From an uncultured Prevotellaceae bacterium (GTDB taxonomy: Bacteria > Bacteroidota > Bacteroidia > Bacteroidales > Bacteroidaceae): a stretch of 64,000 bases of DNA. Under the pieces are notes generated by a model. The model searched no databases. It was not told where the DNA came from and saw only the letters and a program-made list of their open reading frames with translations. Location of the stretch: assembly GCA_937900485.1 (NCBI GenBank), contig CALCEL010000027.1, positions 2,466 to 66,465 on the forward strand, written 5' to 3'. The position numbers and the translations under genes are program-made. Each line of letters starts with the position of its first letter. The stretch's first letter is position 1. Below, in pieces: positions 5,807 to 54,359 of the stretch.

Positions 5807-6138
5807 CTAACCAGATTTCCTATCCGCACCCCCAATTTTTGCTGTCCGAAACTCCTCTTTTTCCGTTGACACAAGGCAACGAGAAAATGACTTCCGGAAT
5901 TTTCCCGTGTCTTATTCGGCTTTTGAAAATCTCAGGTTAGGATGATGAAAAGTTCAGGTTAGGATTTTTAAATTATCAGACCTGCGTATAGACTACATCC
6001 TAACCTGAGATTTTAAAAAAAGAGACATAAGGTTTTTAAATGCTTTGTTTTAACATTATCAATAAGTTAACCTATTTTTGATAAAAAATGGGCATAGGAA
6101 ATTTCGTCACACCATAAATTGTCCATTATTTCACCATG
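5807..6138 (+). repeat. Copy 1 of the ~330-bp structured non-coding repeat family
   Basis: Colinear with 21563-21894, 32853-33182 and 53861-54189. Contains AGGTTAGGA half-sites in the order > > < < and a subterminal inverted repeat, ATTTCCTAT (5815-5823) with ATAGGAAAT (6094-6102). No conserved ORF. Confidence 0.9.
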
Positions 6139-11874: not shown

Positions 11875-11898
11875 TTTTATTAATACAAACAATTATAT

Positions 11899-13062
11899 AT
11901 GAGTCTTTTTTCGATTTGCCGCAGAGGTGCTTTGCTTCTGATTTTGCTACAAGTGATGTTCGCAACCTATCTTCATGCTTTCACTAACGGAAAGTTATGG
12001 ATGGATAATTCTGGTAAACATATCAACGCACATGGTGGTAATGTCATCAAGTATAACGGGAAATACTACTGGTATGGTGAGAATCGTCCTTATGTAGGAT
12101 TCACCACGACCGTCGGCGTCAGTGTGTATTCCAGTGACGACCTCAAGACGTGGACCAATGAGGGAGTGGCTTTGTCTATCAGCAATGAGGAGGGCAGCGA
12201 TATTGAGGCAGGATGTATAATGGAGCGTCCGAAGGTCATATATAATAAGAAGACGAATAAGTTCGTCATGCTTTTTCACCTTGAACTTAAAGGTCGTGGA
12301 TACGAGGCTGCTCGTGTGGCCTTTGCGGAGAGTGACACCCCTACGGGACCTTTCCGTTTTATCCGTTCTACTCGTATTAACGCCGGTATATGGCCTTTCG
12401 ATATGAAAAAGGCGGACAGAAAGGCTGCCATGGCTACTGACGCAGGAAAATGGAAAGACTGGTGGACTCCAGAGTGGAGAAAAGAGACGGAGAAGGGAAT
12501 GTATCTGTGGAGAGATTTCGAAGGGGGGCAGATGAGTAGGGACATGACGGTCTATGTCGATGAGAAAGGCAAGGCTTACCACATCACCTCATCTCAGGAG
12601 AATCTCACACTTCTTGTTAGTGAGCTGACGGATGACTATCTTGACTTCACGGGTAAGTATAACATGATTGCGCCAGGTGGACAGAATGAGGCTCCGACAA
12701 TCATGAGGCATGACGGTAAATACTGGCTTATATGTTCTGGATGTACCGGATGGGCTCCTAATGAGGCGAGAATGTTCGTGAGCGATAAGATCTGGGGACC
12801 ATGGAAACAGGTGAAGTCGCCGTTCAAGGGAGCTAACGCTACGTATAAGGATTTCCCTGCGTCTAAGACCTTCGGAGGACAAGGCACGTATATTCTTTCT
12901 GTTCCTGAAACCGATGATAAGGGAAAGACTGTGACTAAGTATATCTTTATGGCTGATATATGGAATCCGGAGCATTTGAGTGAGTCGTTACACATATGGC
13001 TTCCTATCAACTTTGACAGTGAGGCTACTCCAGAGATTATGTGGACGGACAAGGTGCTTTGA
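11899..13062 (+). CDS. Glycoside hydrolase family 43-like protein, secreted
   Basis: Signal peptide. Five-bladed-propeller GH43-style blocks: HGGNVIKYNGKYYWYGE, MERPKVIY, EAPTIMRHDGKYWLICSGCTGW. Confidence 0.65.
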   Translation: MSLFSICRRGALLLILLQVMFATYLHAFTNGKLWMDNSGKHINAHGGNVIKYNGKYYWYGENRPYVGFTTTVGVSVYSSDDLKTWTNEGVALSISNEEGSDIEAGCIMERPKVIYNKKTNKFVMLFHLELKGRGYEAARVAFAESDTPTGPFRFIRSTRINAGIWPFDMKKADRKAAMATDAGKWKDWWTPEWRKETEKGMYLWRDFEGGQMSRDMTVYVDEKGKAYHITSSQENLTLLVSELTDDYLDFTGKYNMIAPGGQNEAPTIMRHDGKYWLICSGCTGWAPNEARMFVSDKIWGPWKQVKSPFKGANATYKDFPASKTFGGQGTYILSVPETDDKGKTVTKYIFMADIWNPEHLSESLHIWLPINFDSEATPEIMWTDKVL

Positions 13063-13123
13063 GCCTTTCTTTCCAATGTGACCATGTCGGATGATTTATT
13101 CAAGTAATGTAAGCTTGTCAAAT

Positions 13124-14356
13124 ATGAATAATATGATAAAAGTAAGTGCGCCGCAGCGTGTTAAAGGAGAGGTGAGACTGCCATCGTCAAAAAGTATCTG
13201 TAATCGCGCTTTGATTATTAACTCGTTGGCTGGTAATGATGAGATGCCGCAGAATCTGTCGGACTGTGATGACACACGTGTGATGGTTGATTGGCTTACA
13301 CGCAGACCTGATGTTATAGACATAGGAGCGGCTGGTACTGCTATGCGTTTCTCCACGGCTCTGTTGGCAGTCACAAAGGGCACATATGTCATTACGGGAA
13401 CGGAGAGAATGAAGAACAGACCTGTTTCCGTGCTTGTTGACGCATTGAGGCAGCTGGGCGCTGATGTCAAGTATGTGGAGAAAGAAGGCTATCCTCCTTT
13501 AAGTGTCACAGGCAATGAGAAACTGCCAGGTGGCGACATTGAACTGTCAGGCAGTGTCAGCTCACAGTATGTGTCTGCTTTGCTTATGATAGCGCCGGTG
13601 ATGAGTAACGGACTGCGACTGGTGCTTCAAGGTAATGTGGTGAGTAGACCATATATCGACATGACCATCTCGTTGATGTCTGAGTTTGGCGCCGAAGTGA
13701 AATGGGAAACATCAAACTCCATCGTGGTTAGACCTGTGACATACAAAAAACGTCAGTATTATGTGGAGAGTGACTGGAGCGCTGCCAGTTATTGGTACGA
13801 GATGACAGCATTGACAAAAGACCCTGATGTGGAGATAACACTACCAGGATTACATAAGAAAAGCATGCAGGGTGACTCTAAGGTAGCTGACCTTTTCGGA
13901 CAGCTTGGAGTGGAGACGTCTTACTCTGACGCAGGCGTGACGTTAAGAAAATGTGTGAGAAGAACAGACAAACTTGAGTACGATTTTGTTGAAATACCCG
14001 ATCTTGCTCAGACGTTCGTAGTTACATGTTGTATGTTAGGTATACCATTTCACTTCACTGGTTTGCAGAGTCTGAAGATAAAGGAGACAGATCGTATAGA
14101 GGCTTTGAAGTGTGAGTTGAGGAAGCTTGGCTACTTAATTCAGGACAGTAACGACTCTGAGCTTTCATGGAATGGCGAGAAGTGTGACGTCCAGGCGGCA
14201 CCTGCGATTGACACGTATGAGGATCATCGTATGGCTATGGCCTTTGCTCCTTGTGCACTCTGTCTTGGTGAGATAAATATTAATAATCCACAAGTTGTGT
14301 CCAAATCTTATCCTGGCTATTGGGATGATTTGAAATCAGTTGGTTTTGCGTTATGA
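13124..14356 (+). CDS. aroA: 3-phosphoshikimate 1-carboxyvinyltransferase (EPSP synthase)
   Basis: LPSSKSICNRALI, GAAGTAMRF and SSQYVSALLM motifs. The start is placed at the ATG at 13124. Confidence 0.9.
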   Translation: MNNMIKVSAPQRVKGEVRLPSSKSICNRALIINSLAGNDEMPQNLSDCDDTRVMVDWLTRRPDVIDIGAAGTAMRFSTALLAVTKGTYVITGTERMKNRPVSVLVDALRQLGADVKYVEKEGYPPLSVTGNEKLPGGDIELSGSVSSQYVSALLMIAPVMSNGLRLVLQGNVVSRPYIDMTISLMSEFGAEVKWETSNSIVVRPVTYKKRQYYVESDWSAASYWYEMTALTKDPDVEITLPGLHKKSMQGDSKVADLFGQLGVETSYSDAGVTLRKCVRRTDKLEYDFVEIPDLAQTFVVTCCMLGIPFHFTGLQSLKIKETDRIEALKCELRKLGYLIQDSNDSELSWNGEKCDVQAAPAIDTYEDHRMAMAFAPCALCLGEININNPQVVSKSYPGYWDDLKSVGFAL

Positions 14357-14772
14357 CGATTCTTGTATTATCAATAGTGGTTCTTGGTTTGGTGGCTTTC
14401 CTCGCCGGATGGCAGAGAGAGAGAAAGTTGAAGAAGATGTTGGAGAATGGTGAGATATCTGAGCTGCCGAGTATAAAGCAAGTGGAGGATATGGAGTGTT
14501 GCGGTCAGCATGAGACATGTGAGAAGGAGAGTCTGCTTGCCGCTGTGAGCAAGGACATTGTTTATTATAATGATGAGGAGCTGGACAGGTTCAGGGGGAC
14601 GCCTCCGTCAATGTATCAGGAGAAGGACGTGGACGAGTTCCGTGATGTCTTATATACGATGAAAGAAGATGAGGTGGCAGGTTGGGTCAGGAGTCTTCAG
14701 CTCAGAGCCGTGGAATTGCCTGATGAGTTGAGAGATGAGGTGTTCATGATTGTCGGAGAACGTCGTTCGTGA
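14353..14772 (+). CDS. Hypothetical N-terminally membrane-anchored acidic protein
   Basis: 139 aa. Its start overlaps the aroA stop (ATGA). One N-terminal TM helix, a CCGQHETC cysteine/histidine cluster and an acidic C-terminal half. No family recognised. Confidence 0.55.
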   Translation: MTILVLSIVVLGLVAFLAGWQRERKLKKMLENGEISELPSIKQVEDMECCGQHETCEKESLLAAVSKDIVYYNDEELDRFRGTPPSMYQEKDVDEFRDVLYTMKEDEVAGWVRSLQLRAVELPDELRDEVFMIVGERRS

Positions 14773-14806
14773 ATAATAATTATTTGTTTCTTGCGTTATT
14801 CATTGT

Positions 14807-17701
14807 ATGCGGACTCTTGTTAAGTTTTTATCATTAGTGATGACGATGGTCATCGTTGTGTCGTGCTCCACAAAGAAAAACACGGCAATGACCAGGCGTG
14901 TCCAAGCTTTTAAGGCACACTACAACACGTACTACAACGGGCAGTTGGCCTTTAAGGATGGTGAATTGGCGCAGGAGACGGGTAACAAGGACAATTTCAC
15001 GGACGTCATACCTTTCTACATGACAGGTAATAAGACTACTGTCACGCTGGGTAAGTCAGACTTCGACAGAGCTGTGGAGAAATGTCAAAAGACAATAAAG
15101 CAGCACTCCATCACAAAAAGACCGGAGTGGAAAGGTAATAAGGTGCAGACACCTAAAGACAAGATATGGCTCAATCAGAAAGAATACAACACATTTCTTT
15201 ACAAGGCATGGTTCCTGTTGGGAGAGAGTCAGTTCAGAAAAGGTGAATACATGGAAGCAGCTTCCACTTTCGCTTACATACAACATATATATTTTTCGAA
15301 TCCGGACATCATTGCCAAGGCACGTCTGCTCGAAGCTAAGTGTTATGTGGAGCTTGAGTGGTACTACGACTCGGAAGATCTGTTAAACAAGACCGAGAGA
15401 GATAGTTTTCCTACAAATCTCAAGTCACTCAAGGCATCCGTTGAGGCTAATATCTTTGTTCGTCAGAAACAGTATGAAGAGGCCATACCCAACCTGCTGT
15501 TGGCGGTAAAAAAAGAAAAACGCTCATTACAAAAGACCCGTATTTATTACCTCTTAGGCCAGTTATACCATCGGACTGGTAATGATGTCAGTGCTTATAA
15601 GTATTATTCCAAGGTTATCAAGCGTAATCCAGCTTATGAACTTGAGTTTAATGCCAGGATACATCGGACGGAATGTATCACTAACGGACAGTTAAAGCAG
15701 ATTCGTTACCTGCAGTCCATGGCGAGGAGCGAGAAGAACAAGGACTATCTCGATCAGGTGTATTATGCAATCGGTAACGTTTATCTGAGCATGGGCGATA
15801 CCATTGGTGCCATCAATTCTTATGAGACGGGTGTGGAGAAAAGCACGAGGAACGGTATAGAGAAAGGCGTGTTGTTGCTACACTTGTCGAGGTTATATTG
15901 GCAGACCGAGAAATTCGTGAAATGTCAGAAGACATACTCTGAGGCTTTAAGCTTGTTCGATAAGGATATGGATGATTACGCCGAGATATATGAGCGTTCC
16001 AAAATCCTTGACGACCTGTTGCCTTACGCCTCAGCCGTGGAGCTTCAGGACAGTCTGCAAAGACTCGCTAAGATGTCACCTCAGCAACGTGAGAAAGTTA
16101 TCGAGAAGATAATCGAGGAGTTGAAGAAGAAAGAAAAAGAGGAGGAGAGAAAGGCGGCAGAGTCTGAGGAGGCGGCTAAGTCTGCGTCTACCAATACGAG
16201 AAACAATAAAACAAATAACGGAAGAGTAAATAATAATACTAACGCCAACAACTCTCAGAAATCAGTTTGGTATTTCTACAACGCCACGACAGTCGAAGCC
16301 GGAAAGAAAGAGTTCGCCAATAAGTGGGGGAAAAGAAAGTTAGCGGATGACTGGAGACGTAGCAATGTCACTGTGTTGTCGGACTATAATGCGGAAGAGC
16401 AAACGGATTCCGTGAGTGCGGACAGTACGCAGAGAAAAGATATGCAGGCTGAGTCAAGCACAAAGGACAAGAAGGCTGACAAGAAACGACAGAAAGAGGA
16501 AGAGAAGGCCAATGACCCACATAATGTGGAATATTACCTGAAGGACATACCTCTTACTGAGGAGCAGATGGACGAGTCCAACAGCTCGTTGGTGGATGGT
16601 CTGTACGGCTCTGCTATTATATATAAGGATGAGATGGAGAACCTGCCGCTTGCCAAACGTACGTTTAACAGGATTTTAACTGACTTCCCTGATTTTGGGA
16701 GCAAGGACGAGGTGTATTATAATCTGTTTCAGTTATATTCGCGTATGAATGATAGTCTGACCGCCGAGGACTACAGACAGAAACTGTTGAGCGAATATCC
16801 GCAGAACGAGCACGCAAAGCTTATAGCTGACCCACTGTTCCTTTATAAAGGGAAATACGGAAAACATATTGAGGACTCCATTTACACCGAGGCGTATAAT
16901 GACTTCTGCCAGGGAAACTTCCGGTCTGTAGTCGAGAAAAACGAATATGCCTCACGTGAGTACCCTAACGGAGACAACAGAGCCAGATTCTTGTTTATTA
17001 CAGCGATGAGTAAACTGGAACTCGGAGAGAGAGAGGAATTTCTCTCCGCCATGAGAGACATTGTGGAGAATTATCCGAAGAGCACCATAAGTGAGCTGGC
17101 AGGTATGTATGTGAAAGGACTGAAGGAGGGACGTCTGTTAGCCAGTGGAAAATTTGATATGGGCTCAATTTGGGAGAGAAGACATGGAGTGGGAGAAGAT
17201 GGTGACAGTCTGGCCGTTGACACCACTTTCTCGAAAGAGAAGAACAATGACTGGGTGTTCGCCATAGCGTATGAACGTGACAGCGTCGATGAGAACCAAC
17301 TGCTTTTTGAAATCGCCAAGTACAATTTCACCAACTTCACAGTCAGGAACTTCGATATAGCGACTGACAAGGGAGACGGAATAGACATGCTTCAGGTCCG
17401 TACGTTCAACAATTATGATGAGGCTTACATTTACCTGCATCGACTGATGAACAACGAGGAGATGGCATATAAGCTTGGCGGACTGAAATGTTTCATTATC
17501 TCTGAGGAAAACCTTAAGTTGTTGATGAAAGGATTCAGCTTCGCAGACTATTTCGAGTTCTATGATGAGAATTTTGACAGGCTAGGACACTTACAGGTTG
17601 ATGATGACACTCTGGACTCAACGGATGAGATAATCAACTATGATGAGCAGGAGGAAGAATACTACGAGGAAGAAGAGGAAGAAGAGAATTTCATATTCTG
17701 A
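14807..17701 (+). CDS. porW: TPR-repeat outer-membrane lipoprotein, PorW/SprE-like (type IX secretion)
   Basis: Lipobox VVSC followed by STKKNT...R..AFKAHYNTYYNG, as at SprE/PorW N-termini. Multiple TPR-like segments, K/E- and N-rich low-complexity linkers and an acidic tail. Located directly upstream of a PorX-like gene. Confidence 0.5.
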   Translation: MRTLVKFLSLVMTMVIVVSCSTKKNTAMTRRVQAFKAHYNTYYNGQLAFKDGELAQETGNKDNFTDVIPFYMTGNKTTVTLGKSDFDRAVEKCQKTIKQHSITKRPEWKGNKVQTPKDKIWLNQKEYNTFLYKAWFLLGESQFRKGEYMEAASTFAYIQHIYFSNPDIIAKARLLEAKCYVELEWYYDSEDLLNKTERDSFPTNLKSLKASVEANIFVRQKQYEEAIPNLLLAVKKEKRSLQKTRIYYLLGQLYHRTGNDVSAYKYYSKVIKRNPAYELEFNARIHRTECITNGQLKQIRYLQSMARSEKNKDYLDQVYYAIGNVYLSMGDTIGAINSYETGVEKSTRNGIEKGVLLLHLSRLYWQTEKFVKCQKTYSEALSLFDKDMDDYAEIYERSKILDDLLPYASAVELQDSLQRLAKMSPQQREKVIEKIIEELKKKEKEEERKAAESEEAAKSASTNTRNNKTNNGRVNNNTNANNSQKSVWYFYNATTVEAGKKEFANKWGKRKLADDWRRSNVTVLSDYNAEEQTDSVSADSTQRKDMQAESSTKDKKADKKRQKEEEKANDPHNVEYYLKDIPLTEEQMDESNSSLVDGLYGSAIIYKDEMENLPLAKRTFNRILTDFPDFGSKDEVYYNLFQLYSRMNDSLTAEDYRQKLLSEYPQNEHAKLIADPLFLYKGKYGKHIEDSIYTEAYNDFCQGNFRSVVEKNEYASREYPNGDNRARFLFITAMSKLELGEREEFLSAMRDIVENYPKSTISELAGMYVKGLKEGRLLASGKFDMGSIWERRHGVGEDGDSLAVDTTFSKEKNNDWVFAIAYERDSVDENQLLFEIAKYNFTNFTVRNFDIATDKGDGIDMLQVRTFNNYDEAYIYLHRLMNNEEMAYKLGGLKCFIISEENLKLLMKGFSFADYFEFYDENFDRLGHLQVDDDTLDSTDEIINYDEQEEEYYEEEEEEENFIF

Positions 17702-17767
17702 CGATGACTCTCATGTGGGGGCAGATTGAGAAGGAGATAACAGTAATAACAATAAAACGATAACAGC

Positions 17768-19318
17768 GTGAACGGAACATTATTGTGGGTGGATGATGAG
17801 ATTGAACTGCTCAAAGCACACATCATCTTTCTGAGAAATAAAGGATATGACGTGGAAACAGCCAGCAATGGACAGGACGCCATAGAGGCATGCCGTGAGC
17901 GCAGATTCGACCTCGTCCTGCTGGATGAGAACATGCCGGGCCTGAGTGGTTTGGAGACATTGTCCATACTCAAGGATGACAACCCCACTCTGCCTGTCGT
18001 CATGGTGACCAAGAGCGAGGAGGAGAATATCATGGACTTGGCTATAGGATCGAAGATAGCTGACTACCTCATCAAGCCTGTCAATCCGTCACAGATACTG
18101 CTCACACTGAAAAAACACCTGCATAAGCATGAGATAGAGAAAGAGGTGGCAAACACCAGTTATCAGCAGAACTTCTCAAAGTTAGGCATGCAAATCAATG
18201 ACTCGTATAGCATCGACGACTGGAAAGATGTGTATAAGCGTCTTGTGTTCTGGGAGCTTGAGCTGGCGGATACAAGTAGTGACATGTCCGAGATGCTCAT
18301 GATGCAGAAGAATGAGGCGAACAACGGGTTCGCTAAGTTCATCAGGAGAAACTACATGGACTGGATGCGTAATCCGGACACACGTCCTTTGATGTCTCCT
18401 GACATCTTTAAGTCCAAGGTCTTTCCTTTACTCAACAACGGAGAGAAAGTGTACCTCTTTGTGTTTGACAATTTCCGGTATGACCAATGGCGTATACTCA
18501 GCCATGAGTTGTCTGACGAGTTCTCGTTTGACGAGGAGCTTTATGTCTCAATACTGCCGACAGCCACTCAGTATGCGAGAAACGCAATATTCTCTGGACT
18601 GATGCCTGAGCAGATTGCCACTATGTATCCTGACCTGTGGGTGGACGAGGATGAGGAGGATGGAAAAAACATGAACGAGGAGCCATTGATAAAGACACAG
18701 CTGGAGAGATTCAGAAGAAAGAACACGTTCTCTTATTTCAAACTCAATAACGCTAATGACTCCGAGAAGATTATGGATAAGATGAAGAGCATAGCGGATA
18801 ATGACCTGAATGTCTTCGTCGTCAATTTCATCGATATGCTGTCGCATGCCAGAACGGAGTCGAGGATGGTGAGAGAGCTGGCATCCGACGAGAAGGCTTA
18901 CAGGAGTATCACAGCATCGTGGTTTCATAACTCACCTGTGCGTGAGTTGTTCTCCGCACTCAGTCGTACGGATGCCAAGATAATCGTCACGACAGATCAT
19001 GGCAGCATACGTGTCAATAATCCTATTAAAGTCATTGGCGACAGAAACACTAACACAAATCTCAGATATAAACTCGGTAAGAACCTGTCGTACAACCAGA
19101 AACAGGTGTTTGAGATGAAGAACCCGAAAGACGCCTTTCTGCCTTCTCCGAATATCAGCACCACATATATCTACGCTCAGAATGACGACTTCTTCGCATA
19201 TCCGAATAACTACAATTATTATGTCAGCTATTTCAAGAACACGTTTCAGCACGGAGGAATAAGCATGGAGGAGATGCTGATACCGCTGATTGTCATGCAG
19301 AGCAAGAAAAGAGGATAG
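17768..19318 (+). CDS. porX: Response regulator with receiver plus PglZ (alkaline-phosphatase-like) domains, PorX-like
   Basis: 516 aa. CheY-like receiver (LWVDDE, LVLLDENMPG, KP motif) followed by a long PglZ-type domain. Size and architecture match the T9SS regulator PorX. GTG start. Confidence 0.7.
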   Translation: MNGTLLWVDDEIELLKAHIIFLRNKGYDVETASNGQDAIEACRERRFDLVLLDENMPGLSGLETLSILKDDNPTLPVVMVTKSEEENIMDLAIGSKIADYLIKPVNPSQILLTLKKHLHKHEIEKEVANTSYQQNFSKLGMQINDSYSIDDWKDVYKRLVFWELELADTSSDMSEMLMMQKNEANNGFAKFIRRNYMDWMRNPDTRPLMSPDIFKSKVFPLLNNGEKVYLFVFDNFRYDQWRILSHELSDEFSFDEELYVSILPTATQYARNAIFSGLMPEQIATMYPDLWVDEDEEDGKNMNEEPLIKTQLERFRRKNTFSYFKLNNANDSEKIMDKMKSIADNDLNVFVVNFIDMLSHARTESRMVRELASDEKAYRSITASWFHNSPVRELFSALSRTDAKIIVTTDHGSIRVNNPIKVIGDRNTNTNLRYKLGKNLSYNQKQVFEMKNPKDAFLPSPNISTTYIYAQNDDFFAYPNNYNYYVSYFKNTFQHGGISMEEMLIPLIVMQSKKRG

Positions 19319-19385
19319 ACGTTAAGATAATAAATGATTGACGAGTTTTCTGACAGAAGACCACGGACTCAAAAAAATAACAGAT

Positions 19386-19796
19386 ATGGAGATATTAATT
19401 AAAGACATTGAGAATATCAAAGACGCTGCCGCCCAGTTTGTCAAAGCGATGGGTGACAACACGATATTTGCTTTTTACGGTAAGATGGGAGCAGGAAAGA
19501 CAACATTCATAAAGTCTGTATGTGAGGAACTGGGAGTGAAGGACGTCATCAACTCTCCTACCTTCGCCATTGTCAATGAATATATGGATGGACGCGGCAA
19601 TCCTATTTTCCATTTCGACTTTTACCGTATAAAGAAAGAACAGGAGGTTCTTGATATGGGTTATGAGGACTATGTCTACAGCGGTAACGTGTGTTTCATG
19701 GAGTGGCCAGAGCTGATTGACGACTTACTGCCGGATGATACGGTGCGTGTTACCATCGTCGAGGAAGAGGACGGCTCCAGAAGAATCACCATGTGA
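19386..19796 (+). CDS. tsaE: tRNA threonylcarbamoyladenosine biosynthesis ATPase TsaE
   Basis: Walker A GKMGAGKTTF, SPTFAIVNEY and HFDFYR motifs. The start is placed at the ATG at 19386. Confidence 0.85.
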   Translation: MEILIKDIENIKDAAAQFVKAMGDNTIFAFYGKMGAGKTTFIKSVCEELGVKDVINSPTFAIVNEYMDGRGNPIFHFDFYRIKKEQEVLDMGYEDYVYSGNVCFMEWPELIDDLLPDDTVRVTIVEEEDGSRRITM

Positions 19797-19810
19797 CACC
19801 AGTGATTTTT

Positions 19811-19857
19811 TTCTGACAACCACGCATACGCCACCGCTGCTTGTGTGGTTGTCAGAA
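19811..19857 (+). terminator. Hairpin downstream of tsaE (possible terminator)
   Basis: ttctgacaaccac / gtggttgtcagaa forms a 13-bp perfect stem with a 21-nt loop. No downstream T-run; a T-run precedes it. Confidence 0.35.
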
Positions 19858-19962
19858 ACGAGACACTCCGTGTACTGACTTGTGACACCTCTGTATAGTA
19901 TGTCTTCTGACACAGAAGGCCACATTTCTATGAACAACATAACCGAGTAGAATATCTGTATT

Positions 19963-21444
19963 ATGAATATAACACAAAAGCAGCGTTACACCATTATTAT
20001 GTCTGTGTGTGTGATACTTTGGACGGTATCATGCTTTCTGTGGTTCAACACATCATTCAAATATCACTTTTATCATGAGGAACAAAACCAGTTGTTTCTA
20101 CTCGACAGACAATATCTCCTGACGTATTTAGACAAACCGGCGTGGATGGCTTGTATCTCAGGCGACTATCTCACTCAGTTTTATTACTATGAGTATGCCG
20201 GAGCGACAATTGTGAGCGTATCTTTGCTGCTGCTTGCTGTCGTGTTTGCTAAATGTGTGAGACAATGTGCCGATGACTCATATTCTTTCCGGCAATGTGT
20301 GGCGAGTCCGACGTTGTCACTTTGTCTCGTGACTGCCGTAGCCAGGCTCTACCTGTATGAGAACTTCAAGCTCAGCGCCGTTATGGCGTTGCTGGGTGCG
20401 TGCGTGATGATGGCATTCGTTTATCACCCGATAGGCAAGAAAACTGTGAGTTGGTCGTTGACGTGCCGTCTGTTGATGGACATTCTGTTCATAGTACTCA
20501 CAGCATGGATGTTCGGCAATGGCGTGTTCTTGCTGTTGACGATTATGATTGCTCGTGACGTCACCAAGTGCGTGAGGAACAAAAGACTGTCGGCGACTGC
20601 AGTCTCCCGCTCATCGCTGTGTATCGTGCTCACCTTCGTGACACTGATAGTCATGTCTCGTTTCTATCATGTGAACAGAGATAAGTGCCTGATGTATCCG
20701 GCGCAGCTCAAGCTCGTCAGCATGAATGATGTGAGAACTTGGGAGAAAACACTGATGTATGACAACGAATATTACTTCGGCAACTATAACAGAGTGATAA
20801 TGATGTTTGACAAAAATGAGGAGGAAACGACGAGTGAACAGTGTTTCTTCTATTGTCTGAGTCTTGCTAAGATGGGCATGCTGCCTGACCGGCTGATGTC
20901 TATGCGTACTCCCGTTCTCGGCACATTCTTTCATATAGACGAGACCGCGCAGTTGTATACTATAAAGATGATTAACGAGTTGTATTTCATTCTCGGCGAC
21001 ATGACGTATGCGGAGCGAGCCGCACTGATGGCCAACACCTTCTCTCCTTCCGGAAGAAACGTTAGAATGGTGAAGAGGCTGGCGGAGATCAACCTGCTGA
21101 AGGGTGATGAGCGCGCTGCAATGAAATATCTGAGGATTCTTGAGAAAACGATAGTCTATCGTAAGTGGGCTGAGGAGCATACGCCTGGTCATCTCACGGT
21201 GACGGTAAGTAGAGAACTGGAAGAGAAACGTAAGTATCTGAACACTTGTGATGATATCCGCGTCGGCGATGATTGTTACGTCATCCTCACTCAGTTGCTG
21301 ACAAGTAATCCTGACAATACCATCGCTTTAGATTATCTCTTGTGTAGTGATATTTTATCAAGACAGAGGAATCTGTTTGTCAGTGACTATATGAAGTATA
21401 AACCGAGGAAAAAGTCTCTTTACGAGAGTGCACTGATCAGGTAG
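19963..21444 (+). CDS. Hypothetical polytopic membrane protein (multi-TM N-terminal half, helical-repeat C-terminal half)
   Basis: 493-aa ORF in this region, with several hydrophobic helices in the first ~240 aa. It resembles Bacteroidetes DUF-type membrane proteins, but I cannot name the family with confidence. Confidence 0.7.
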   Translation: MNITQKQRYTIIMSVCVILWTVSCFLWFNTSFKYHFYHEEQNQLFLLDRQYLLTYLDKPAWMACISGDYLTQFYYYEYAGATIVSVSLLLLAVVFAKCVRQCADDSYSFRQCVASPTLSLCLVTAVARLYLYENFKLSAVMALLGACVMMAFVYHPIGKKTVSWSLTCRLLMDILFIVLTAWMFGNGVFLLLTIMIARDVTKCVRNKRLSATAVSRSSLCIVLTFVTLIVMSRFYHVNRDKCLMYPAQLKLVSMNDVRTWEKTLMYDNEYYFGNYNRVIMMFDKNEEETTSEQCFFYCLSLAKMGMLPDRLMSMRTPVLGTFFHIDETAQLYTIKMINELYFILGDMTYAERAALMANTFSPSGRNVRMVKRLAEINLLKGDERAAMKYLRILEKTIVYRKWAEEHTPGHLTVTVSRELEEKRKYLNTCDDIRVGDDCYVILTQLLTSNPDNTIALDYLLCSDILSRQRNLFVSDYMKYKPRKKSLYESALIR

Positions 21445-21562: not shown

Positions 21563-21894
21563 TTAACCGGATTTCCTATTCACACCCATAATTTTTGTTG
21601 TTCGAAACTCCTCTTTTTTCGTTGACACTTGGCAACGAAAAAATGCTTTTAAGTATTTTGTCATAGCTTATTCTTCGGTTGAAAATCTTAGGTTAGGGCG
21701 TTGAAAAGTTCAGGTTAGGATTTTTAAATTCTCAGACCTGTATGAAGACTATATCCTAACCTGAGAATTTTAAAAAAGAGACCTAAGGTTTTTAAATGCC
21801 TTGTTTTAAGATTATCAGCAAGTTATCTTAAATTTATACAAAAATAAGCATAGGAAATTTGGTGACGATGTAAATTGTCCATTATTCCACCATG
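21563..21894 (+). repeat. Copy 2 of the ~330-bp structured repeat family
   Basis: Colinear with the other three copies, same orientation. The B1 half-site cttaggt (21687-21693) is exactly complementary to B4 acctaag (21781-21787). Confidence 0.9.
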
Positions 21895-32627: not shown

Positions 32628-32852
32628 TGAGACGTCACATCGGGTTTTCAGACGTTGACGAACCGCAAAGCGAAAGCATTCGATAGGCTACTGACTGCAG
32701 TGCCTATATATGAAATGAAGTCTACATTCATACTTCTACATTTCTGTGCGTCTTGAATGTCAGAGTCGAGTCAATAGAAATCAGTGTTAACCATTACCTT
32801 GCGTGAGTCCTTTTTGTACCGGTTTGAGATATGAAAAACTCGTAAACACACA

Positions 32853-33182
32853 CTTACCAGATTTCCTATCCGCCCCCCAATTTTTACTGTCCGAAACTCC
32901 CCTTTTCCCGTTGACACGTGTCAGCGATAAAATGACTTCTGAAATTTTCCCGTGTCTTATTTGGCGTCTGAAAATCTCAGGTTAGGACGTTGAAAAGTTC
33001 AGGTTAGGATTTTTAAACTCTCAGACCTGCGTATTGACTATATCCTAACTTGAGAGTTTCAAAAAAGACACCTGAGATTTTTAAAAGTCTTGTTTTAAGA
33101 ATATCAGCAAGTTAACCGGATTTTAGTAAAAACTAGTCATAAGAAAATTGGTTACACTCCAAATTGTCCATAATTCCACCAG
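32853..33182 (+). repeat. Copy 3 of the ~330-bp structured repeat family
   Basis: Colinear with the other copies. B1 (32971-32982, aaaatctcaggt) is a perfect complement of B4 (33070-33081). B2 (32998-33010) pairs with B3 (33042-33054) with one G-T. The palindrome tgacacgtgtca lies at 32912-32923. Confidence 0.9.
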
Positions 33183-48911: not shown

Positions 48912-50471
48912 ATGTTAACGAAAATCTTCTCAGCCACGTTACGTGGTTTGGACGCTTTGCCTGTTATTATTGAGGCTGACTCATATTCCACATCATCTCC
49001 TCAAGTGAGGTTTTCTATTGTGGGGTTGCCCGACAATGCTGTAAAGGAGAGTCAGGAACGTATCCTGTCCTCTTTGCGTTTTTATGGCTATAAACATCCA
49101 GTGAAAAATGTCGTTGTCAATTTAGCCCCAGCAGATATCCGGAAAGAAGGCTCAGGCTTCGATTTGCCTATAGCCATATCTCTCCTGTCCGCTTATGACA
49201 TATTGAATTTTCATGATTTGGACCACTGCATGTTTATTGGCGAGTTAGGTCTTGACGGTAGCATTTTACCAGTCAAGGGCGCCCTACCTATATCCATCAA
49301 GGCCCGTGAGTTAGGCTTTGACAGTCTTTTTGTTCCGAAAGACAATGTCAAGGAGGCTGCTGTCGTCAACAAGCTGAAAGTGTATGGTGTCTCAAACCTT
49401 CAGGAGGTTATCTATCATCTTATGGGGCAAGTGGTGTTGGAACCGGAATTCGTTGACACACGCAAAGAGTTTTACGAGAGTCAATGTGATTATGACATCG
49501 ATTTTGAGGACGTTAAAGGTCAGGAAAATGTGAAACGTGCCTTTGAGGTAGCTGCAGCCGGTGGACATAACATTATATTAGTGGGTAGTCCGGGCTGTGG
49601 TAAGTCTATGATGGCTAAGCGCATTCCCACCATCCTTCCTCCATTATCTCTTAGTGAGAGTCTTGAGACCACACAAATACATAGCGTGGCGGGAAGGATG
49701 AAAAAAGACTCGTCGCTGATATCTCAGCGTCCTTTCAGGTCACCTCATCACACGATATCTGTCGTGGCTCTTGTGGGAGGTGGACAGAATCCCCAACCAG
49801 GAGAAGTGAGTCTGGCACATAACGGAGTGTTATTTCTTGATGAGATGCCGGAGCTGAGCCGTAGTGTCCTTGAGGTGTTACGTCAGCCTCTTGAAGATAG
49901 GAAGATAACAATCAGCCGTGTGAAATACAATGTTGAGTATCCCTGTTCCTTTATGTTGGTAGCATCTATGAACCCGTGCCCTTGTGGATATTACGGTGAC
50001 ACTTCTCATCATTGCGTGTGTACTCCTGGACAGATACAGAGATATATGAACAAGATTAGCGGTCCTTTGCTTGACCGTTTCGATATACATTGTGAGATTC
50101 AGGCAGTGCCGTTTGCTCAGCTCTCGCAGATGCAACCGGGAGAGCCAAGTAGAAAGATACGGGAAAGAGTCATCAAGGCGAGACAAATACAGGAGTTGCG
50201 GTTCCGGGAGTTCAAAGGCGTCCATTGTAATGCCCAGATGAACGAACGTATGTTACACAAGTTCGCTGAACCTGATGTCGAGTCACTCTCTATGCTTCGT
50301 ACTGCTATGGATAGACTGAAGCTGTCTGCAAGAGCCTACAGCCGTATATTGAAGGTAGCCAGAACCATCGCTGACTTAGACAGTTCAGAGAACGTCCAGT
50401 CACAGCACATTGCCGAGGCTATTGGTTATCGTAACCTTGATAGAGGTGACTGGGCAGAAAGAGGAATATAA
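48912..50471 (+). CDS. comM: Mg-chelatase-like AAA+ ATPase YifB/ComM
   Basis: 519 aa. Lon-like N-terminal domain, Walker A GSPGCGKSM, Walker B LFLDEMPE, and the Cys cluster CPCGYYGD..H.C.C. Confidence 0.9.
   Translation: MLTKIFSATLRGLDALPVIIEADSYSTSSPQVRFSIVGLPDNAVKESQERILSSLRFYGYKHPVKNVVVNLAPADIRKEGSGFDLPIAISLLSAYDILNFHDLDHCMFIGELGLDGSILPVKGALPISIKARELGFDSLFVPKDNVKEAAVVNKLKVYGVSNLQEVIYHLMGQVVLEPEFVDTRKEFYESQCDYDIDFEDVKGQENVKRAFEVAAAGGHNIILVGSPGCGKSMMAKRIPTILPPLSLSESLETTQIHSVAGRMKKDSSLISQRPFRSPHHTISVVALVGGGQNPQPGEVSLAHNGVLFLDEMPELSRSVLEVLRQPLEDRKITISRVKYNVEYPCSFMLVASMNPCPCGYYGDTSHHCVCTPGQIQRYMNKISGPLLDRFDIHCEIQAVPFAQLSQMQPGEPSRKIRERVIKARQIQELRFREFKGVHCNAQMNERMLHKFAEPDVESLSMLRTAMDRLKLSARAYSRILKVARTIADLDSSENVQSQHIAEAIGYRNLDRGDWAERGI
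50080..50335 (+). repeat. Left copy of the 256-bp perfect direct repeat (inside intact comM)
   Basis: Identical, position by position, to 52933-53188 (offset 2853). Similarity continues in diverged form to the stop codons (50471 and 53324). Confidence 0.95.
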
Positions 50472-50513
50472 ATTTGGTCGTTTAATATAAAATTGTCACT
50501 TTTGCTGCCTATA

Positions 50514-51557
50514 ATGAAAACAAGAAGATTTATCATTTTAAGTATACTTAGTATAACTGTATCATTGCAAACATTAATTGCACAAAGCAACAGTAATAGC
50601 GAATACTATGACAAAGCGTACTCTGAAATAACGGATATGCTGGAAGGCAGAACTGCCTTGTCAATAAGTCGCGCTGTCTTTGTGGCAGAATGGGCTTACC
50701 TTGACGGCAATCTGGACTACGAGAAAGATTTCTGTGAGCCTATCAAGAAAGGAGCGGACTATATGATGCGTATGATTGCTGTCAATCATTGGGAGAAATA
50801 CAAGACAGCGAAACAAATAGCCCTCTGCAACTTTTTCTTTTACCCTTGCTCTGGGAATGGCCAGAAACCTTATGAATACGATTTCAGCAATGAATTCCCC
50901 AATGATGACTGGCACTACCAACTTGTTTCCATAACTATCAAAACACACAAAGGGCAATGCCACTCATTGCCTTGGGCATTCAAGCTGTATGCAGAGGAAC
51001 TTGGTGCAAATGTCTCGCTGACACATGCTCCATGCCATTGTTTCATTATATATAAAGATGAAGACAACTTATTCCCTGAAGACTGGATTAATGTAGAGGT
51101 AACAGCACACCAGTACCAACCGACTTGGGGAATAAAGGAACACTTTGCCATTTCGGATTCGGCAATAGCAGCAGGAACATATCTGACTCCTATTACTGAT
51201 GTCCAAACAGTGGCTTGTCAGTTGGCAGACTTAGCTTTAGGCTATTACCATAAGTATAAGCGTTATGATGATTTTACACTCAAATGCGCCGAAGTATCTT
51301 TGAAATACTATCCCATGAATCCTAATGCAATCATTACCAAGGGGAAATCTCTTGATGCACTTCTACAGCAACATCTTGAACAAAACGGACATCTTCGGGA
51401 TGCATATACAGATGCTATAGACTTACAATCGAGACAATGCATGCAGGACTTAAAAGCAACCCACTGGACTCAAGAGACGGAAGAACTGCGGAACAAATGG
51501 AAGCAAACTCCAGAAGACTTTGAGAATATCAGAAAGAATATACAAATCATAAAATAA
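50514..51557 (+). CDS. Secreted transglutaminase-like (Cys-His-acid) fold protein with TPR-like C-terminal region
   Basis: Signal peptide MKTRRFIILSILSITVSLQTLIAQ. Contains KGQCHSLPWAF ... PCHCFIIY ... WINVEVT in the order expected for a transglutaminase-like core, and a helical-repeat C-terminus. AT-rich relative to its neighbours. Confidence 0.45.
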   Translation: MKTRRFIILSILSITVSLQTLIAQSNSNSEYYDKAYSEITDMLEGRTALSISRAVFVAEWAYLDGNLDYEKDFCEPIKKGADYMMRMIAVNHWEKYKTAKQIALCNFFFYPCSGNGQKPYEYDFSNEFPNDDWHYQLVSITIKTHKGQCHSLPWAFKLYAEELGANVSLTHAPCHCFIIYKDEDNLFPEDWINVEVTAHQYQPTWGIKEHFAISDSAIAAGTYLTPITDVQTVACQLADLALGYYHKYKRYDDFTLKCAEVSLKYYPMNPNAIITKGKSLDALLQQHLEQNGHLRDAYTDAIDLQSRQCMQDLKATHWTQETEELRNKWKQTPEDFENIRKNIQIIK

Positions 51558-51563
51558 AGTATT

Positions 51564-52286
51564 ATGAAAAGATTTAAAAAAGCATTACTGTCAGTCGCTA
51601 TTTCATTAGCAGCAATTAACGCAAACGCATTTCCTTGGATTTCACCGTATGCATATTGTTTAGGGAACCCCGTGGCTGCAATTGATCCAGATGGTAGAAA
51701 AGTAGTATTTGTTAACGGATACCTTGGTTTTGGCTCACCAGAAGGTGGAGAGACCTATTGGAATGGGCATAACTCTTCATTTGTGAAAGGAGCACAATCT
51801 ACATTTAATGATTATGCAACACCATATTTTACTAACTACGATTATAATTATATGAAAAGTGCAAGTATGGTTAGAGAGTCTTTAGGTTATCAATATGCAA
51901 AAGATAATTACAATGCTCTTATCGAGGGTATGAAGCCTGGTGTAGATAAATTTAATTTCGTATCGCATAGTATGGGAGGAGCTTTCTCAGAGGGAATGAT
52001 GAAATATATGTCTGAACAAGGCTGGGAAACCGATAATGCTTTATTCCTAAACGCATGGGAACCATCACGAATTAACACTAAAGTAGAAAAGAATAGGATA
52101 GATGCGACATGTGTCAATGACCCTGTACAATTTCTAAGTAAACCTTTGTTTGGAGATCCAGACATTCCATCTTCTGATGAAAGAATAAGGATAAATAGTA
52201 ATGAGTCAATGATGTATATCCATAGAGATTTAATAGATGGTAATAACGATTTATGGAAACTGATTAATAGTTTCTTATCAAAATGA
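51564..52286 (+). CDS. Orphan Rhs/polymorphic-toxin C-terminal cassette with a lipase-like alpha/beta-hydrolase toxin domain
   Basis: SPYAYCLGNPVAAIDPDGRK (51642-51701) resembles the Rhs-core terminal PxxxxDPxG(R/L) junction. Downstream are VVFVNGYLGFG....YWNG and the nucleophile elbow VSHSMGG (GxSxG), as in secreted lipases. A signal-peptide-like segment MKRFKKALLSVAISLAAINANA precedes it. No YD/Rhs repeats lie upstream. Confidence 0.6.
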   Translation: MKRFKKALLSVAISLAAINANAFPWISPYAYCLGNPVAAIDPDGRKVVFVNGYLGFGSPEGGETYWNGHNSSFVKGAQSTFNDYATPYFTNYDYNYMKSASMVRESLGYQYAKDNYNALIEGMKPGVDKFNFVSHSMGGAFSEGMMKYMSEQGWETDNALFLNAWEPSRINTKVEKNRIDATCVNDPVQFLSKPLFGDPDIPSSDERIRINSNESMMYIHRDLIDGNNDLWKLINSFLSK

Positions 52287-52669
52287 GAATCTTCATCAAC
52301 ATTATTGCAATAATTGCATTTATTATACAATCATTTTCTTTTGTATTAAATGTACTAATTCAAAAGAAACCTGAAAGCACAATAGATTCATTGTATAGCT
52401 ATTTTGTTGTTATAGCTTATCTTTGCTCGGTATTGGTTATTGTTCTGTTTGTCTTATTATATAACTTTGATTTCAAGTTTCTGAAAACAAAAATTCTAAA
52501 TTGTTTCTTCTGTATAGTTGGTTTTCTCGGAACATATATTCATATTTGGCAGTTGTTTATACATAATGACTTCGTATTAACATCATTTGTTTTACTAATT
52601 TTTGATATCTATATCTTTTGTAAAATACTGAGTAGTTTTTTTAATATTAATGACTTGCATATCCAGTGA
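52283..52669 (+). CDS. Small 4-TM membrane protein, candidate cognate immunity protein
   Basis: 128 aa with four hydrophobic helices, very AT-rich. The ATG overlaps the toxin stop (ATGA at 52283-52286), implying translational coupling. Confidence 0.5.
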   Translation: MRIFINIIAIIAFIIQSFSFVLNVLIQKKPESTIDSLYSYFVVIAYLCSVLVIVLFVLLYNFDFKFLKTKILNCFFCIVGFLGTYIHIWQLFIHNDFVLTSFVLLIFDIYIFCKILSSFFNINDLHIQ

Positions 52670-52932
52670 GTCATAGTAGTTCTAACTGCAGTTCTTCCAC
52701 GATGAGTATACAAATAATTATTAATTTTTTGGAATTTACTCTATCTTTTATATACGTTATGCTTATATGGCCAGTATATGAAGGCGAAGATTGTTTATGG
52801 GATTGCTTAATTTTTCAGCTATTAAAACGAATTGCGAAGTAACATAAACGAAATTATGGAGAAAGTAAGCTAGAATGATTCATGCAAATAGTATCTGTCA
52901 GGAATTCTCGGCGTATAAAACCGCAGCACGTA

Positions 52933-53188
52933 TCGATATACATTGTGAGATTCAGGCAGTGCCGTTTGCTCAGCTCTCGCAGATGCAACCGGGAGAGCCA
53001 AGTAGAAAGATACGGGAAAGAGTCATCAAGGCGAGACAAATACAGGAGTTGCGGTTCCGGGAGTTCAAAGGCGTCCATTGTAATGCCCAGATGAACGAAC
53101 GTATGTTACACAAGTTCGCTGAACCTGATGTCGAGTCACTCTCTATGCTTCGTACTGCTATGGATAGACTGAAGCTGTCTGCAAGAGC
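52933..53188 (+). repeat. Right copy of the 256-bp perfect direct repeat
   Basis: Identical to 50080-50335. Confidence 0.95.
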
Positions 53189-53324
53189 TTACAGCAGAAT
53201 ACTTAAAGTGTCGAGGACCATTGCAGACTTGGACGGCTCAGAAAAAATCCTGTCCCGACATATTGCTGAAGCAATTGGGTATAGGAGCCTTGACCGTGGC
53301 GATTGGGCAGAGAGAGGTGTGTAA
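52933..53324 (+). pseudogene. comM: Displaced 3' fragment of comM (last ~130 codons, alternative tail)
   Basis: It encodes IDIHCEIQAVPFAQL...AEAIGYRSLDRGDWAERGV*, with no N-terminal AAA+ part. The ORF-track start at 52875 is a fortuitous upstream extension. Confidence 0.9.
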
Positions 53325-53498
53325 TAAATAAAGGCAAATAACTCTTAATATGAGAAATAATACAGAATCGTTTGCCTTTGTGGAAGAACTGTCTGAAGCT
53401 AATGAAGAAGAGAACGTAATGCAAATCATAGTGAACAGTAAGAAACTATTGGCGATTCAGTTCTAAACGAATGACTCTTGATTTAAGCCGCAGAAACA

Positions 53499-53861
53499 CT
53501 ATCTATGTATTATAGATTCTTTGAATTTATCTTCATATTCTTTTAAAAGTTCGCTAAGTGGAATTCCTAATCGAGTGTTTAAACGTAAGAATTTTCTATT
53601 TGTTACAGAGCGTGCATTCTTAAATAGTCTTGCAGTATCAGACTGATTAAAGCCGAGTGCCGTAAGATATATTAGTATTAAATCTTTGTTGTCTATGTCT
53701 TTGTAGTGTGAAAGAATATTTTTTCTGAGATTTGGATATAGTTTATCTACAGCAATAAACACATCTTCCCACATATCTTGTGTTAAGATGGCTTTTTGAT
53801 TATATTCAATTGTTTTTAGTTCTGTGATTACAGATGATACATCCTTTGCGCTTTCAGCTAC
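53499..53861 (-). pseudogene. 5'-truncated gene for an HTH-type regulator-like protein, cut off at the repeat boundary
   Basis: The frame is open from the repeat edge (VAESAKDVSSVITELKTIEYNQKAILTQD-MWEDV...). The upstream in-frame stop (53862-53864) lies inside the first nucleotides of repeat copy 4. The C-terminus LIYLTALGFNQSDTARLFKNARSVTNRKFLRLNTRLGI looks like a helix-turn-helix. An internal ATG at 53774 gives the 91-aa ORF. Confidence 0.5.
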
Positions 53862-54189
53862 TTACCAAACTTCCTATTCATACCCTCAATTTTTAGTGTC
53901 CAAAACTCCTCTTTTTTAGTTGACACGTGTCAGTGAAAAAATGACTTCTGAAATTTTCCAGTGGCTTATTCGGCGTCTGAAATTCTTAGGTTAGGACGCT
54001 GAAAAGTCAAGGTTAGGATTTTTTAAATTGCAGACCTGTTTGTAGTATATATCCTAACCTGAGAATTTCAAAAAGAAGACCTGAGATTTTTAAAAGCATT
54101 GTAATAAGATTATCAATAAGTTAACCCGTTTTTGATTAAAAAGCAGGTATGGGAAATTTGGTTAAGCGCCAAATTGTCCTTTATTCCAC
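53861..54189 (+). repeat. Copy 4 of the ~330-bp structured repeat family
   Basis: Colinear with copies 1-3. B1 gaaattcttaggttagga pairs with B3 tcctaacctgagaatttc (18 positions, one U-G). The palindrome tgacacgtgtca lies at 53921-53932. Confidence 0.9.
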
Positions 54190-54260
54190 TTTTTTTGAGT
54201 GTTTTTTCCGTCAAATAATCACTTGTCAGTCATATTTCACGTTATTGTCTCTCATTGAGA

Positions 54261-54308
54261 CAAAAAAGAGATCCATTTCATGTCAGCATCGATGCTGTGA
54301 AATGGATC
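54261..54308 (-). terminator. Rho-independent terminator of sufE
   Basis: On the minus strand the long hairpin gatccatttca...tgaaatggatc (inner palindrome cagcatcgatgctg) is followed by tctctttttt. Confidence 0.75.
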
Positions 54309-54359
54309 ATCTTGTCTTTATGTAATAAATCTCTCGTCTCAGTATAGACGCTATACGTC

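Follow-up and report, generated by a model that had tools for sequence, protein, structure and literature searches.

A short open reading frame (ORF) that begins like an exported protein, continues with the end of an Rhs core and lies next to comM raises the question of whether it encodes a toxin in use or a displaced cassette kept for recombination. The ORF, 240 amino acids (aa) long, lies in a 64,000-nucleotide (nt) stretch of contig CALCEL010000027.1 from an uncultured Prevotellaceae bacterium (assembly GCA_937900485.1), referred to below as the window, and was initially annotated as an orphan Rhs-type C-terminal toxin with a lipase-like domain. Comparison with homologous loci makes it probable that the ORF supplies the toxin subunit of a polymorphic toxin module, split and Sec-exported, which is present in Prevotella and other Bacteroidota. 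The cassette looks like a working weapon, not like a silent spare part. The genes and domains of the module are listed here; homologous loci and proteins are cited by L and P numbers.

50493..51557, + strand: up354, a predicted secreted protein of 354 aa (listed from the TTG at 50493; the ATG at 50514, MKTRRF…, is the likelier start)
51564..52286, + strand: toxin gene, 240 aa, ATG start (the translation agrees with the sequence quoted in the initial annotation)
51564..51629, + strand: toxin residues 1-22, predicted Sec-type signal peptide MKRFKKALLSVAISLAAINANA (comparison of 43 variants; helix at residues 2-18 in the AlphaFold2 model)
51630..51698, + strand: toxin residues 23-45, FPWISPYAYCLGNPVAAIDPDGR, truncated end of the Rhs-associated core and boundary between constant and variable parts (TIGR03696 positions 57-75)
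51699..52286, + strand: toxin residues 46-240 and stop codon, predicted alpha/beta-hydrolase (lipase/esterase-like) domain (fold model, conservation, Foldseek)
51969-51971, 52119-52121 and 52221-52223, + strand: codons, read from the sequence, of the candidate catalytic residues Ser136, Asp186 and His220
52283..52669, + strand: tm128, 128 aa, four predicted transmembrane segments, candidate immunity protein (its start overlaps the toxin stop, ATGA)

Leader, Rhs-core stub and hydrolase domain of the toxin

The leaders of small homologues vary in sequence while their properties stay constant, as expected if a Sec signal peptide is maintained by selection. All 43 distinct leader variants retain a hydrophobic core, whose Kyte-Doolittle mean lies at 2.0-3.5 across 10 residues, and [A/V/T/I]-x-A immediately ahead of F, W or Y; the N-terminus is net positive in 41. 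Cleavage is predicted after ANA. The Sec-signal-like N-terminus noticed initially is thus borne out by features retained throughout the variants. Homologues of the toxin domain number 127, and 68 of them were aligned (alignment A2). The stand-alone, leader-bearing forms of ~240 aa span identities from 47 to 99%, which argues that the short form is a maintained gene. Relatives in species genomes belong nearly all to Bacteroidota and allied lineages of the Fibrobacteres-Chlorobi-Bacteroidetes (FCB) group, the nearest being metagenome-assembled genomes of Prevotella (72-81%). With the toxin alone, no family in Pfam or NCBIfam rose above threshold, and at E<=1 Pfam returned PGAP1 (E 0.07) and NMT1_2 and no others.

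Behind the leader stands a remnant of the Rhs-associated core. Toxin residues 26-44 align with positions 57-75 of the 76-position model TIGR03696 (Rhs_assc_core) at E 0.0036 and 17.8 bits, the cutoff being 32.5. The complete core is absent from the toxin; for comparison, the Rhs protein of L001 matches positions 1-75 with 59 bits. The weak match still reflects Rhs homology, because a profile made from A2 (68 homologues, among them ones with a long N-terminal part) picks up solved structures of Rhs, TcC, SGS1 and teneurin-like proteins along their C-terminal core, as far as DPDG (E down to 6e-13), and because the domain is shared with proteins annotated as Rhs. The same toxin domain, from residue ~26 onwards, is found on proteins with N-terminal extensions of 600-3200 aa, some of which carry PF25023 or the source label RHS. 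The earlier remark on a resemblance to Rhs junctions therefore concerned a genuine piece of Rhs core, and the toxin holds the last ~20 residues of it (…SPYAYCLGNPVAAIDPDGR).

Within this stub, S27, Y29, N35, D41, P42, D43 and G44 are conserved in at least 90% of the 68 aligned homologues. Conservation was judged from A2, which is unbiased, and not from codon diversity: the conserved junction residues are encoded by 3-4 different codons in 32 DNA versions, a count biased by a search pattern that fixed several residues. The junction proper, NPVAAIDPDGR (residues 35-45), has the form PxxxxDPxG(L) directly ahead of the variable toxin domain, and the segment is modelled by AlphaFold2 with low confidence (a predicted local distance difference test score, pLDDT, of about 50). 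As stated initially, YD repeats do not precede it. No match to RHS_repeat or TEN_YD-shell was obtained with Pfam in the toxin ORF or the upstream gene, the nearest in-frame stop upstream lies just 28 codons ahead of the junction motif, and the motif is the sole Rhs-type junction in the window.

The truncation of the core bears on toxin release. The autoprotease of Pseudomonas protegens RhsA uses the catalytic Asp pair D1324/D1346 and cuts after W1350 (PMC8765631). D41 of the toxin is the counterpart of the second Asp, and residues 1-40 contain neither D nor E, so that an Asp pair ~22-25 residues apart is absent and Rhs-type aspartyl self-cleavage of the toxin is unlikely, as far as its sequence tells.

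The fold model and conservation support well the prediction that the variable part is a Ser136-Asp186-His220 hydrolase of the lipase/esterase kind. The AlphaFold2 model of the toxin (pLDDT 86.6) has an ordinary beta-alpha-beta pattern, and all 21 Foldseek matches in the PDB at E<=0.001 are alpha/beta hydrolases. The best of them is LipA of Bacillus subtilis (E 3.6e-5, template modelling (TM) score 0.55-0.58 on the target). Next come cutinases/PETases, thioesterases, hornet phospholipase A1 and PlaB of Legionella; a search of PDB sequences with the single toxin gave weak LipA matches only. N51, G52, G108, H135, S136, G138, G144, D186 and H220 are invariant in the 68 homologues, and Ser, Asp and His follow each other in the canonical order. 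Of the initial assignment to lipase-like alpha/beta hydrolases, the fold and the triad stand; the elbow does not have the strict GxSxG form and reads S-H-S136-M-G, resembling AHSMG of LipA. The identical lipase-like domain also serves as the C-terminal toxin domain of Rhs proteins. The further suggestion of a Tle-like effector found no backing in membership of the Tle families of type VI secretion systems (T6SS). The toxin has no Tle match in Pfam, no Tle structure appeared in the PDB sequence or fold searches, and Hcp, VgrG and PAAR are absent from the listed Pfam hits of genes in L001-4 and L085-92 and, in the window, from those of the six islet ORFs scanned.

The up354 partner and its fused relatives

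The toxin had been described as an isolated, displaced orphan. It is instead the middle gene of a conserved module, whose first gene, up354, is constant across toxin domains and fused to them elsewhere in Bacteroidota. The stop codon of up354 is 6 nt from the toxin start, and the protein has a predicted signal peptide with cleavage between …LIA and QS and no lipobox. A homologue adjoins the lipase toxin upstream in L001-4 (74% identity), precedes two different toxins in L006 and lies upstream of a leader-type toxin in L014; L021 has three up354 C-terminal fragments. It stands directly ahead of the toxin domain of P0116 in L085-88 and, at 94% identity, ahead of that of P0098 in L089-92. Genes encoding PWISPYAYC were also taken from a metagenome sample; 19 of them are of the leader type and have upstream DNA of sufficient length, and up354 stands directly ahead of 14 of these. 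The Rhs-fused copies of the toxin domain (L007-L013) have no up354 upstream. The idea that up354 might be a periplasmic immunity protein for the lipase was rejected, as up354 precedes unrelated toxin domains.

The decisive evidence for a role of up354 in the toxin system is domain fusion. In other Bacteroidota, relatives of 570-740 aa combine a signal peptide, an up354-like domain, a linker of ~90 residues, the Rhs-core end and a variable C-terminus in a single chain, and a junction motif follows the up354 domain in 18 of the best 150 representatives. These fused relatives cover TIGR03696 from position 35/42 to position 76, above the cutoff in P0298 and P0285, and retain both Asp motifs; the fused proteins scanned match neither the first 34-41 positions of the Rhs-core model nor PF25023. 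P0389 ends in Ntox44, and in P0299 and P0368 the sequence past the junction starts like the lipase domain. Intermediate split forms occur in Flavobacterium (L025) and Ignavibacteriae (L030), where an up354 gene is followed by a gene for a signal peptide, linker, junction and lipase (P0088, P0090). Within this series from fused to split forms, reduction has gone furthest in the Prevotella pair.

The up354 family is large and nameless: 1541 representatives were collected at E<=0.001 (50% clustering), all of them unnamed and unannotated. The copy in the window has no hit in Pfam, and a profile of the family has none among PDB sequences. The AlphaFold2 model of up354 (pLDDT 87.9) is largely helical and may comprise a transglutaminase-like core with helical repeats. 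Foldseek gave weak matches to menin and PNGase (E 0.03-0.1). Both of these proteins are built on a transglutaminase-like core, and the added helical repeats of menin form a peptide-binding cavity. In Pfam, 15 of 58 members have sub-threshold hits to Transglut_core2 (best E 2.7e-4), far beyond any other family. Taken together, the model and these matches lend weak support to a transglutaminase-like fold. A relationship to the DUF6443 N-terminal domain of Bacteroidales Rhs proteins was also considered and rejected, since hhalign gave no match.

Such a fold brings up a more specific activity, namely that up354 is an active cysteine protease of the papain/transglutaminase fold, which cuts the toxin at or near DPDG and replaces the aspartyl autoprotease of Rhs proteins. 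This is conceivable but rather unlikely. Cys156 and His182 are invariant in 58 homologues, a G-x-C-H-[ST]-[LM]-P motif is found in 95 of 150 representatives, the transglutaminase-like signals from Foldseek and Transglut_core2 point in the same direction, and the first catalytic Asp of the Rhs autoprotease, taking RhsA as reference (PMC8765631), is missing from the small toxins. However, it is uncertain which of E196, N200 and E202 would be the third catalytic residue, the fused relatives keep both Asp motifs, and the best structural match is menin, a peptide-binding scaffold.

If the ORF is the toxin subunit of an exported module, as is probable, the inferred mechanism, which extends to export, to the enzymatic activity and its target, to what up354 does and to how target cells are reached, would be as follows. 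The constant part comprises up354, the predicted signal peptide of the toxin and the 23-residue stub of the Rhs core; the variable part is the C-terminal domain with its candidate immunity gene, here the LipA-like hydrolase and a protein with four transmembrane segments. Both up354 and the toxin would reach the periplasm via Sec, where up354 would recognise the conserved and probably unstructured junction peptide and act as a carrier or presenter, standing in for the YD shell or the N-terminal domain that larger toxins have. The hydrolase would attack lipids in the envelope of competitors, and tm128 would shield the producer, the toxin having to pass through the producer's own periplasm. New pairs of toxin and immunity genes may arrive by recombination in the leader and junction on the left and in a gene for a 123-aa protein or a comM' copy on the right.

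Exchange of toxin domains and the comM islet

The module, its boundaries and its polymorphism are established by comparison of homologous sequences. P0096-P0120 begin with the same 47-49 residues (66-89% identity) and continue into unrelated C-terminal domains, 180-225 residues long, and, counting proteins together with genome and metagenome loci, at least 10 different sequences follow DPDG on the leader and junction. The DNA of the window and of L089 is 88-98% identical over 50440-51640, a stretch that begins at the comM stop and takes in up354 and the leader, and becomes unalignable just after the junction. This collapse of identity after DPDG defines up354, leader and junction as the constant part and places the start of the variable part past DPDG.

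The lipase domain appears to travel with its own candidate immunity gene. In L001-4, a homologue of tm128 (78% identical) occupies the same position, and in almost every homologous locus, even where toxin identity is as low as ~37%, the lipase domain has a small protein with 2-4 transmembrane segments behind it. Because this protein accompanies the lipase domain both in small toxins and in Rhs-fused ones, it is a candidate immunity protein. L089 (7243-8144), like L090-92, contains a deletion chimera, up354(1-106)::lipase(~145-240), followed by an intact tm128 homologue, an arrangement that fits an immunity gene kept beside a decayed toxin. The immunity-like nature of the downstream gene, proposed initially, thus gains support from its sequence context. 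Immunity candidates of other leader-type toxins also have signal peptides or membrane spans, and such membrane-bound or exported candidates fit toxins that cross the periplasm of the producer.

A rival explanation makes the cassette a silent orphan, that is, a displaced Rhs C-terminal/immunity cassette which is not used alone and serves as a reservoir for full-length rhs genes elsewhere in the genome. In its favour, the toxin domain occurs on real Rhs proteins with 70-76% identity to that of the window, the junction is homologous to the end of the Rhs core, the homologous module of L001 lies ~7 kb downstream of a full-length DUF6443-Rhs gene, and Rhs genes are found within 10 kb in L085-88 and L089-92. 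The DNA itself, however, speaks against such a reservoir. L001, L087 and L089 hold both full-length Rhs genes and small toxin genes, and in these three related locus types the junctions of the two kinds of genes have 49-57% identity across 99 nt, the exact runs being 7-15 nt long. Runs of this length are too short for efficient RecA-type exchange. By contrast, the two small toxin genes of L001 are identical at 81 of 99 junction positions, share an exact run of 39 nt and have near-identical leaders. Since small genes share longer junction runs with each other than with Rhs, exchange is expected among small genes and not with a resident Rhs gene; the pool of toxin domains common to both kinds indicates that exchange with Rhs has occurred over longer times. 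Full-length Rhs genes with the same junction DNA, a search for which had been proposed initially, did not turn up in the window or the related loci: the window has no other Rhs junction and the related loci offer runs of at most 15 nt. In addition, intact ORFs, the start codon and the signal-peptide properties persist over a range of 47-99% identity, and the upstream partner is conserved and occurs in single-chain fusions. The silent-orphan explanation is therefore improbable for the cassette in the window. True spare cassettes may nevertheless exist within the small-gene family, in the form of genes without up354, such as one small gene of L001 and five of the 19 metagenome genes.

Still less probable, to the point of being hardly tenable, is that the ORF encodes no weapon and is a secreted nutritional or housekeeping lipase/esterase with up354 assisting its folding in the periplasm, as Lif foldases do for lipases of Pseudomonas and Acinetobacter: the fold is indeed closest to a secreted lipase, the LipA:LipB foldase complex is among the distant structural matches (rank 41) and up354 is largely helical and of foldase-like size, but up354 precedes at least 10 unrelated C-terminal domains, the hydrolase domain is also an Rhs toxin domain and has a small membrane protein next to it, fused relatives bear recognised toxin domains such as Ntox44, and the cassette is low in guanine plus cytosine (GC) and varies between strains.

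The module, probably a polymorphic toxin system with exchangeable domains, is inserted between two copies of the comM 3' end.

48912..50471, + strand: comM, intact ORF, YifB/Mg-chelatase-like ATPase of 519 aa, whose 3' end is the cassette insertion site
50076..50471, + strand: left copy of the duplicated comM 3' segment (repeat 50076-50375 = 52929-53228 at 96%)
52666..52842, + strand: 58-aa ORF, shortened by an internal deletion from a conserved polytopic membrane protein of 123 aa (translations compared)
52929..53324, + strand: right comM 3' copy (comM' fragment) and end of the islet (Pfam Mg_chelatase_C, E 1.7e-33; TIGR00368 match)

The comM copy behind the cassette represents the last ~395 nt of the gene. 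Positions 50080-50335 are identical to 52933-53188 (256 nt), and identity then drops markedly toward both stop codons. The location of the cassette beside comM had been called unusual; it is in fact recurrent, as comM or its fragments adjoin homologous cassettes in L117, L006, L014, L089-92, L104, L118 and L005. In L089-92, comM fragments separate two cassettes with the same boundary as in the window, SAYKTAAR-(I/M)DIH, and fragment boundaries are shared at two places, one close to the DIH codons and one close to nt 849 of comM. The recurrence of comM-linked cassettes in several lineages marks comM as a repeated landing place and suggests that its 3' end is a landing site for cassettes or part of an accretion mechanism. 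GC content is 25-30% over the variable part and about 45% around it. No Rfam family was found anywhere in the window.

The 123-aa protein, shortened in the window, forms a constant right flank elsewhere: DNA matches of 81-94% lie downstream of unrelated immunity genes in L085-88, L104, L105 and L121. It was also observed that the protein follows the immunity genes of cassettes with different toxins (at 11130-11501 in L085-88; L105), and it may be part of the toxin system.

Several other elements were noted around the islet and in the related loci. An intergenic repeat of ~330 bp is present in four + strand copies (53860-54189, 32852-33179, 5806-6134 and 21573-21890), which are 78-82% identical pairwise (alignment mean 83%) and match no Rfam family. 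It has the internal inverted pieces AGGTTAGGA and TCCTAACCT and a palindrome at 53912-53941, and it could be a small mobile element or an RNA or regulatory region. A 91-aa ORF on the - strand (53499-53774), within the low-GC stretch 53330-54350, matches the C-terminal end of the BT3442 family only (NF053779 positions 478-554 of 563) and is probably a gene remnant beside the islet. Downstream of the module in L085-88 (11813-20800), unannotated genes (135, 1014 and 366 aa) are followed by genes for proteins of 1031-1098 aa and small genes; two of the large proteins show faint YD-shell signals, and the region may be a Bacteroidales Rhs operon with accessory proteins. Positions 1-9000 of L001-L004 form a variable conflict island, in which the cassettes lie among SIR2_2 and nSTAND NTPase genes, an MmeI-type restriction-modification fusion and an NYN nuclease and adjoin the DUF6443-Rhs gene.

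A number of findings weigh against the interpretation of the cassette as an expressed, exported toxin module. The signals for expression are incomplete: TAAATTTG at 50468-50475, which overlaps the comM stop just upstream of up354, fits the Bacteroides -7 box TAnnTTTG, but no -33 TTTG is present at the right distance, so that a complete Bacteroides-type promoter is lacking. Between comM and the islet end, nothing usable as a sigma-70-type promoter or as TTTG…TAnnTTTG was detected, and no terminator was found on the + strand through the islet. The reduction of the 123-aa gene to 58 aa may mean that this copy of the module is partly decayed. Five of the 19 metagenome leader-type genes have no up354 upstream, and the fold of up354 is weakly assigned (Foldseek E 0.03-0.1, all Pfam hits sub-threshold), its binding of the junction peptide being pure inference. 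As for the toxin, its TM scores to known lipases are modest, and the Pfam scan contains no family of C-terminal domains of the type IX secretion system.

Known systems and significance of the module

Several known systems resemble the module in part. Like the Rhs/YD-repeat toxins (T6SS Rhs, TcC and WapA-type), it has …SPYxYxxNNPxxxxDPxG ahead of a hypervariable toxin domain and an immunity gene downstream; it differs from them in the absence of the YD shell, in retaining core positions 57-75/76 only, in the loss of the first Asp, and in having its own Sec leader and a separate partner. With the orphan rhs-CT/rhsI and cdiA-CT/cdiI pairs, it shares a short toxin that starts at the junction and is paired with an immunity gene, and the L001 copy is located downstream of a full-length Rhs gene. 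Classic orphans of Salmonella and E. coli possess neither a start nor export signals of their own and have junction DNA in common with the main gene, whereas the module has an ATG start, a conserved signal peptide, an upstream partner and little identity in junction DNA with the resident Rhs.

The closest functional analogue, by architecture only, is the Maf system of Neisseria. Its mafA-mafB-mafI loci encode Sec-dependent toxins with a signal peptide and a variable C-terminus, together with an upstream gene for an exported accessory protein, a downstream immunity gene and alternative cassettes, and are organised in islands (PMC5349182, PMC4287609). There is no sequence relationship between the two: MafB carries DUF1020 and MafA is a lipoprotein, while no such Pfam hits were obtained here and up354 has no lipobox. 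Moreover, the constant N-terminus of the module's toxin is an Rhs-core stub, and its accessory protein is predicted to be transglutaminase-like and is fused to the toxin in other taxa.

A further parallel comes from the toxins described by Zhang et al. in 2012, in which a signal peptide and an inactive transglutaminase precede RHS repeats, the domain being proposed to anchor or present the toxin by peptide binding (PMC3482391). What both would have in common is a transglutaminase-like domain, weakly predicted in the case of up354, after the signal peptide of Sec-dependent polymorphic toxins. Compared by description (PMC3482391), those domains have lost their catalytic residues and are followed by RHS arrays, whereas up354 keeps the Cys and His and is a separate gene in Prevotella.

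As to the hydrolase, T6SS effectors Tle1-4 are similar in combining a serine-hydrolase lipase, predicted in the present case, as an envelope-targeting toxin with an envelope-located immunity protein. The module differs in that there is no Tle sequence match, no T6SS family among the listed Pfam hits of neighbouring genes, a proposed export by Sec and a polytopic immunity candidate instead of a soluble or lipoprotein Tli. LipA of B. subtilis (family I.4), the best match in both structure and sequence, has the same small lid-less alpha/beta fold and xHSMG elbow; the toxin is ~14% identical to it (TM 0.43-0.58) and is distinguished by extra elements and by its toxin/immunity context.

In the literature on DUF6443 and on Rhs-like secreted toxins of Bacteroidota and Prevotella, which was covered incompletely, no paper describing the module was found. 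As a broader and more tentative proposal, somewhat less probable than not in our estimation, the module would represent a widespread, undescribed class of Sec-dependent toxins in Bacteroidota, in which a shell-less Rhs stub docks onto, or is processed by, a transglutaminase-like partner. In Flavobacteriia, Cytophagia and Chitinophagia, partner and toxin would form a single protein, and in Prevotella the partner would have a gene of its own. Recombination at the 3' end of comM would both spread the Prevotella cassettes and let them accumulate. If this is true, the junction peptide has a function of its own, the recognition of a partner, beyond that of marking a site of cleavage or recombination. 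Since the peptide is here naturally separated from the Rhs shell, the question of whether it is a landmark only or a recognition element becomes testable.

Linkage to toxins gives the unannotated up354 family its first functional context, and the lipase with its four-transmembrane neighbour is a candidate for a new toxin-immunity family. For Prevotella and the many other Bacteroidota that dominate communities of the gut and rumen, little is known about competition without a T6SS. The module would be a small antagonism system that relies on Sec and whose toxin domains can be exchanged, at least 10 of them being found on one leader.

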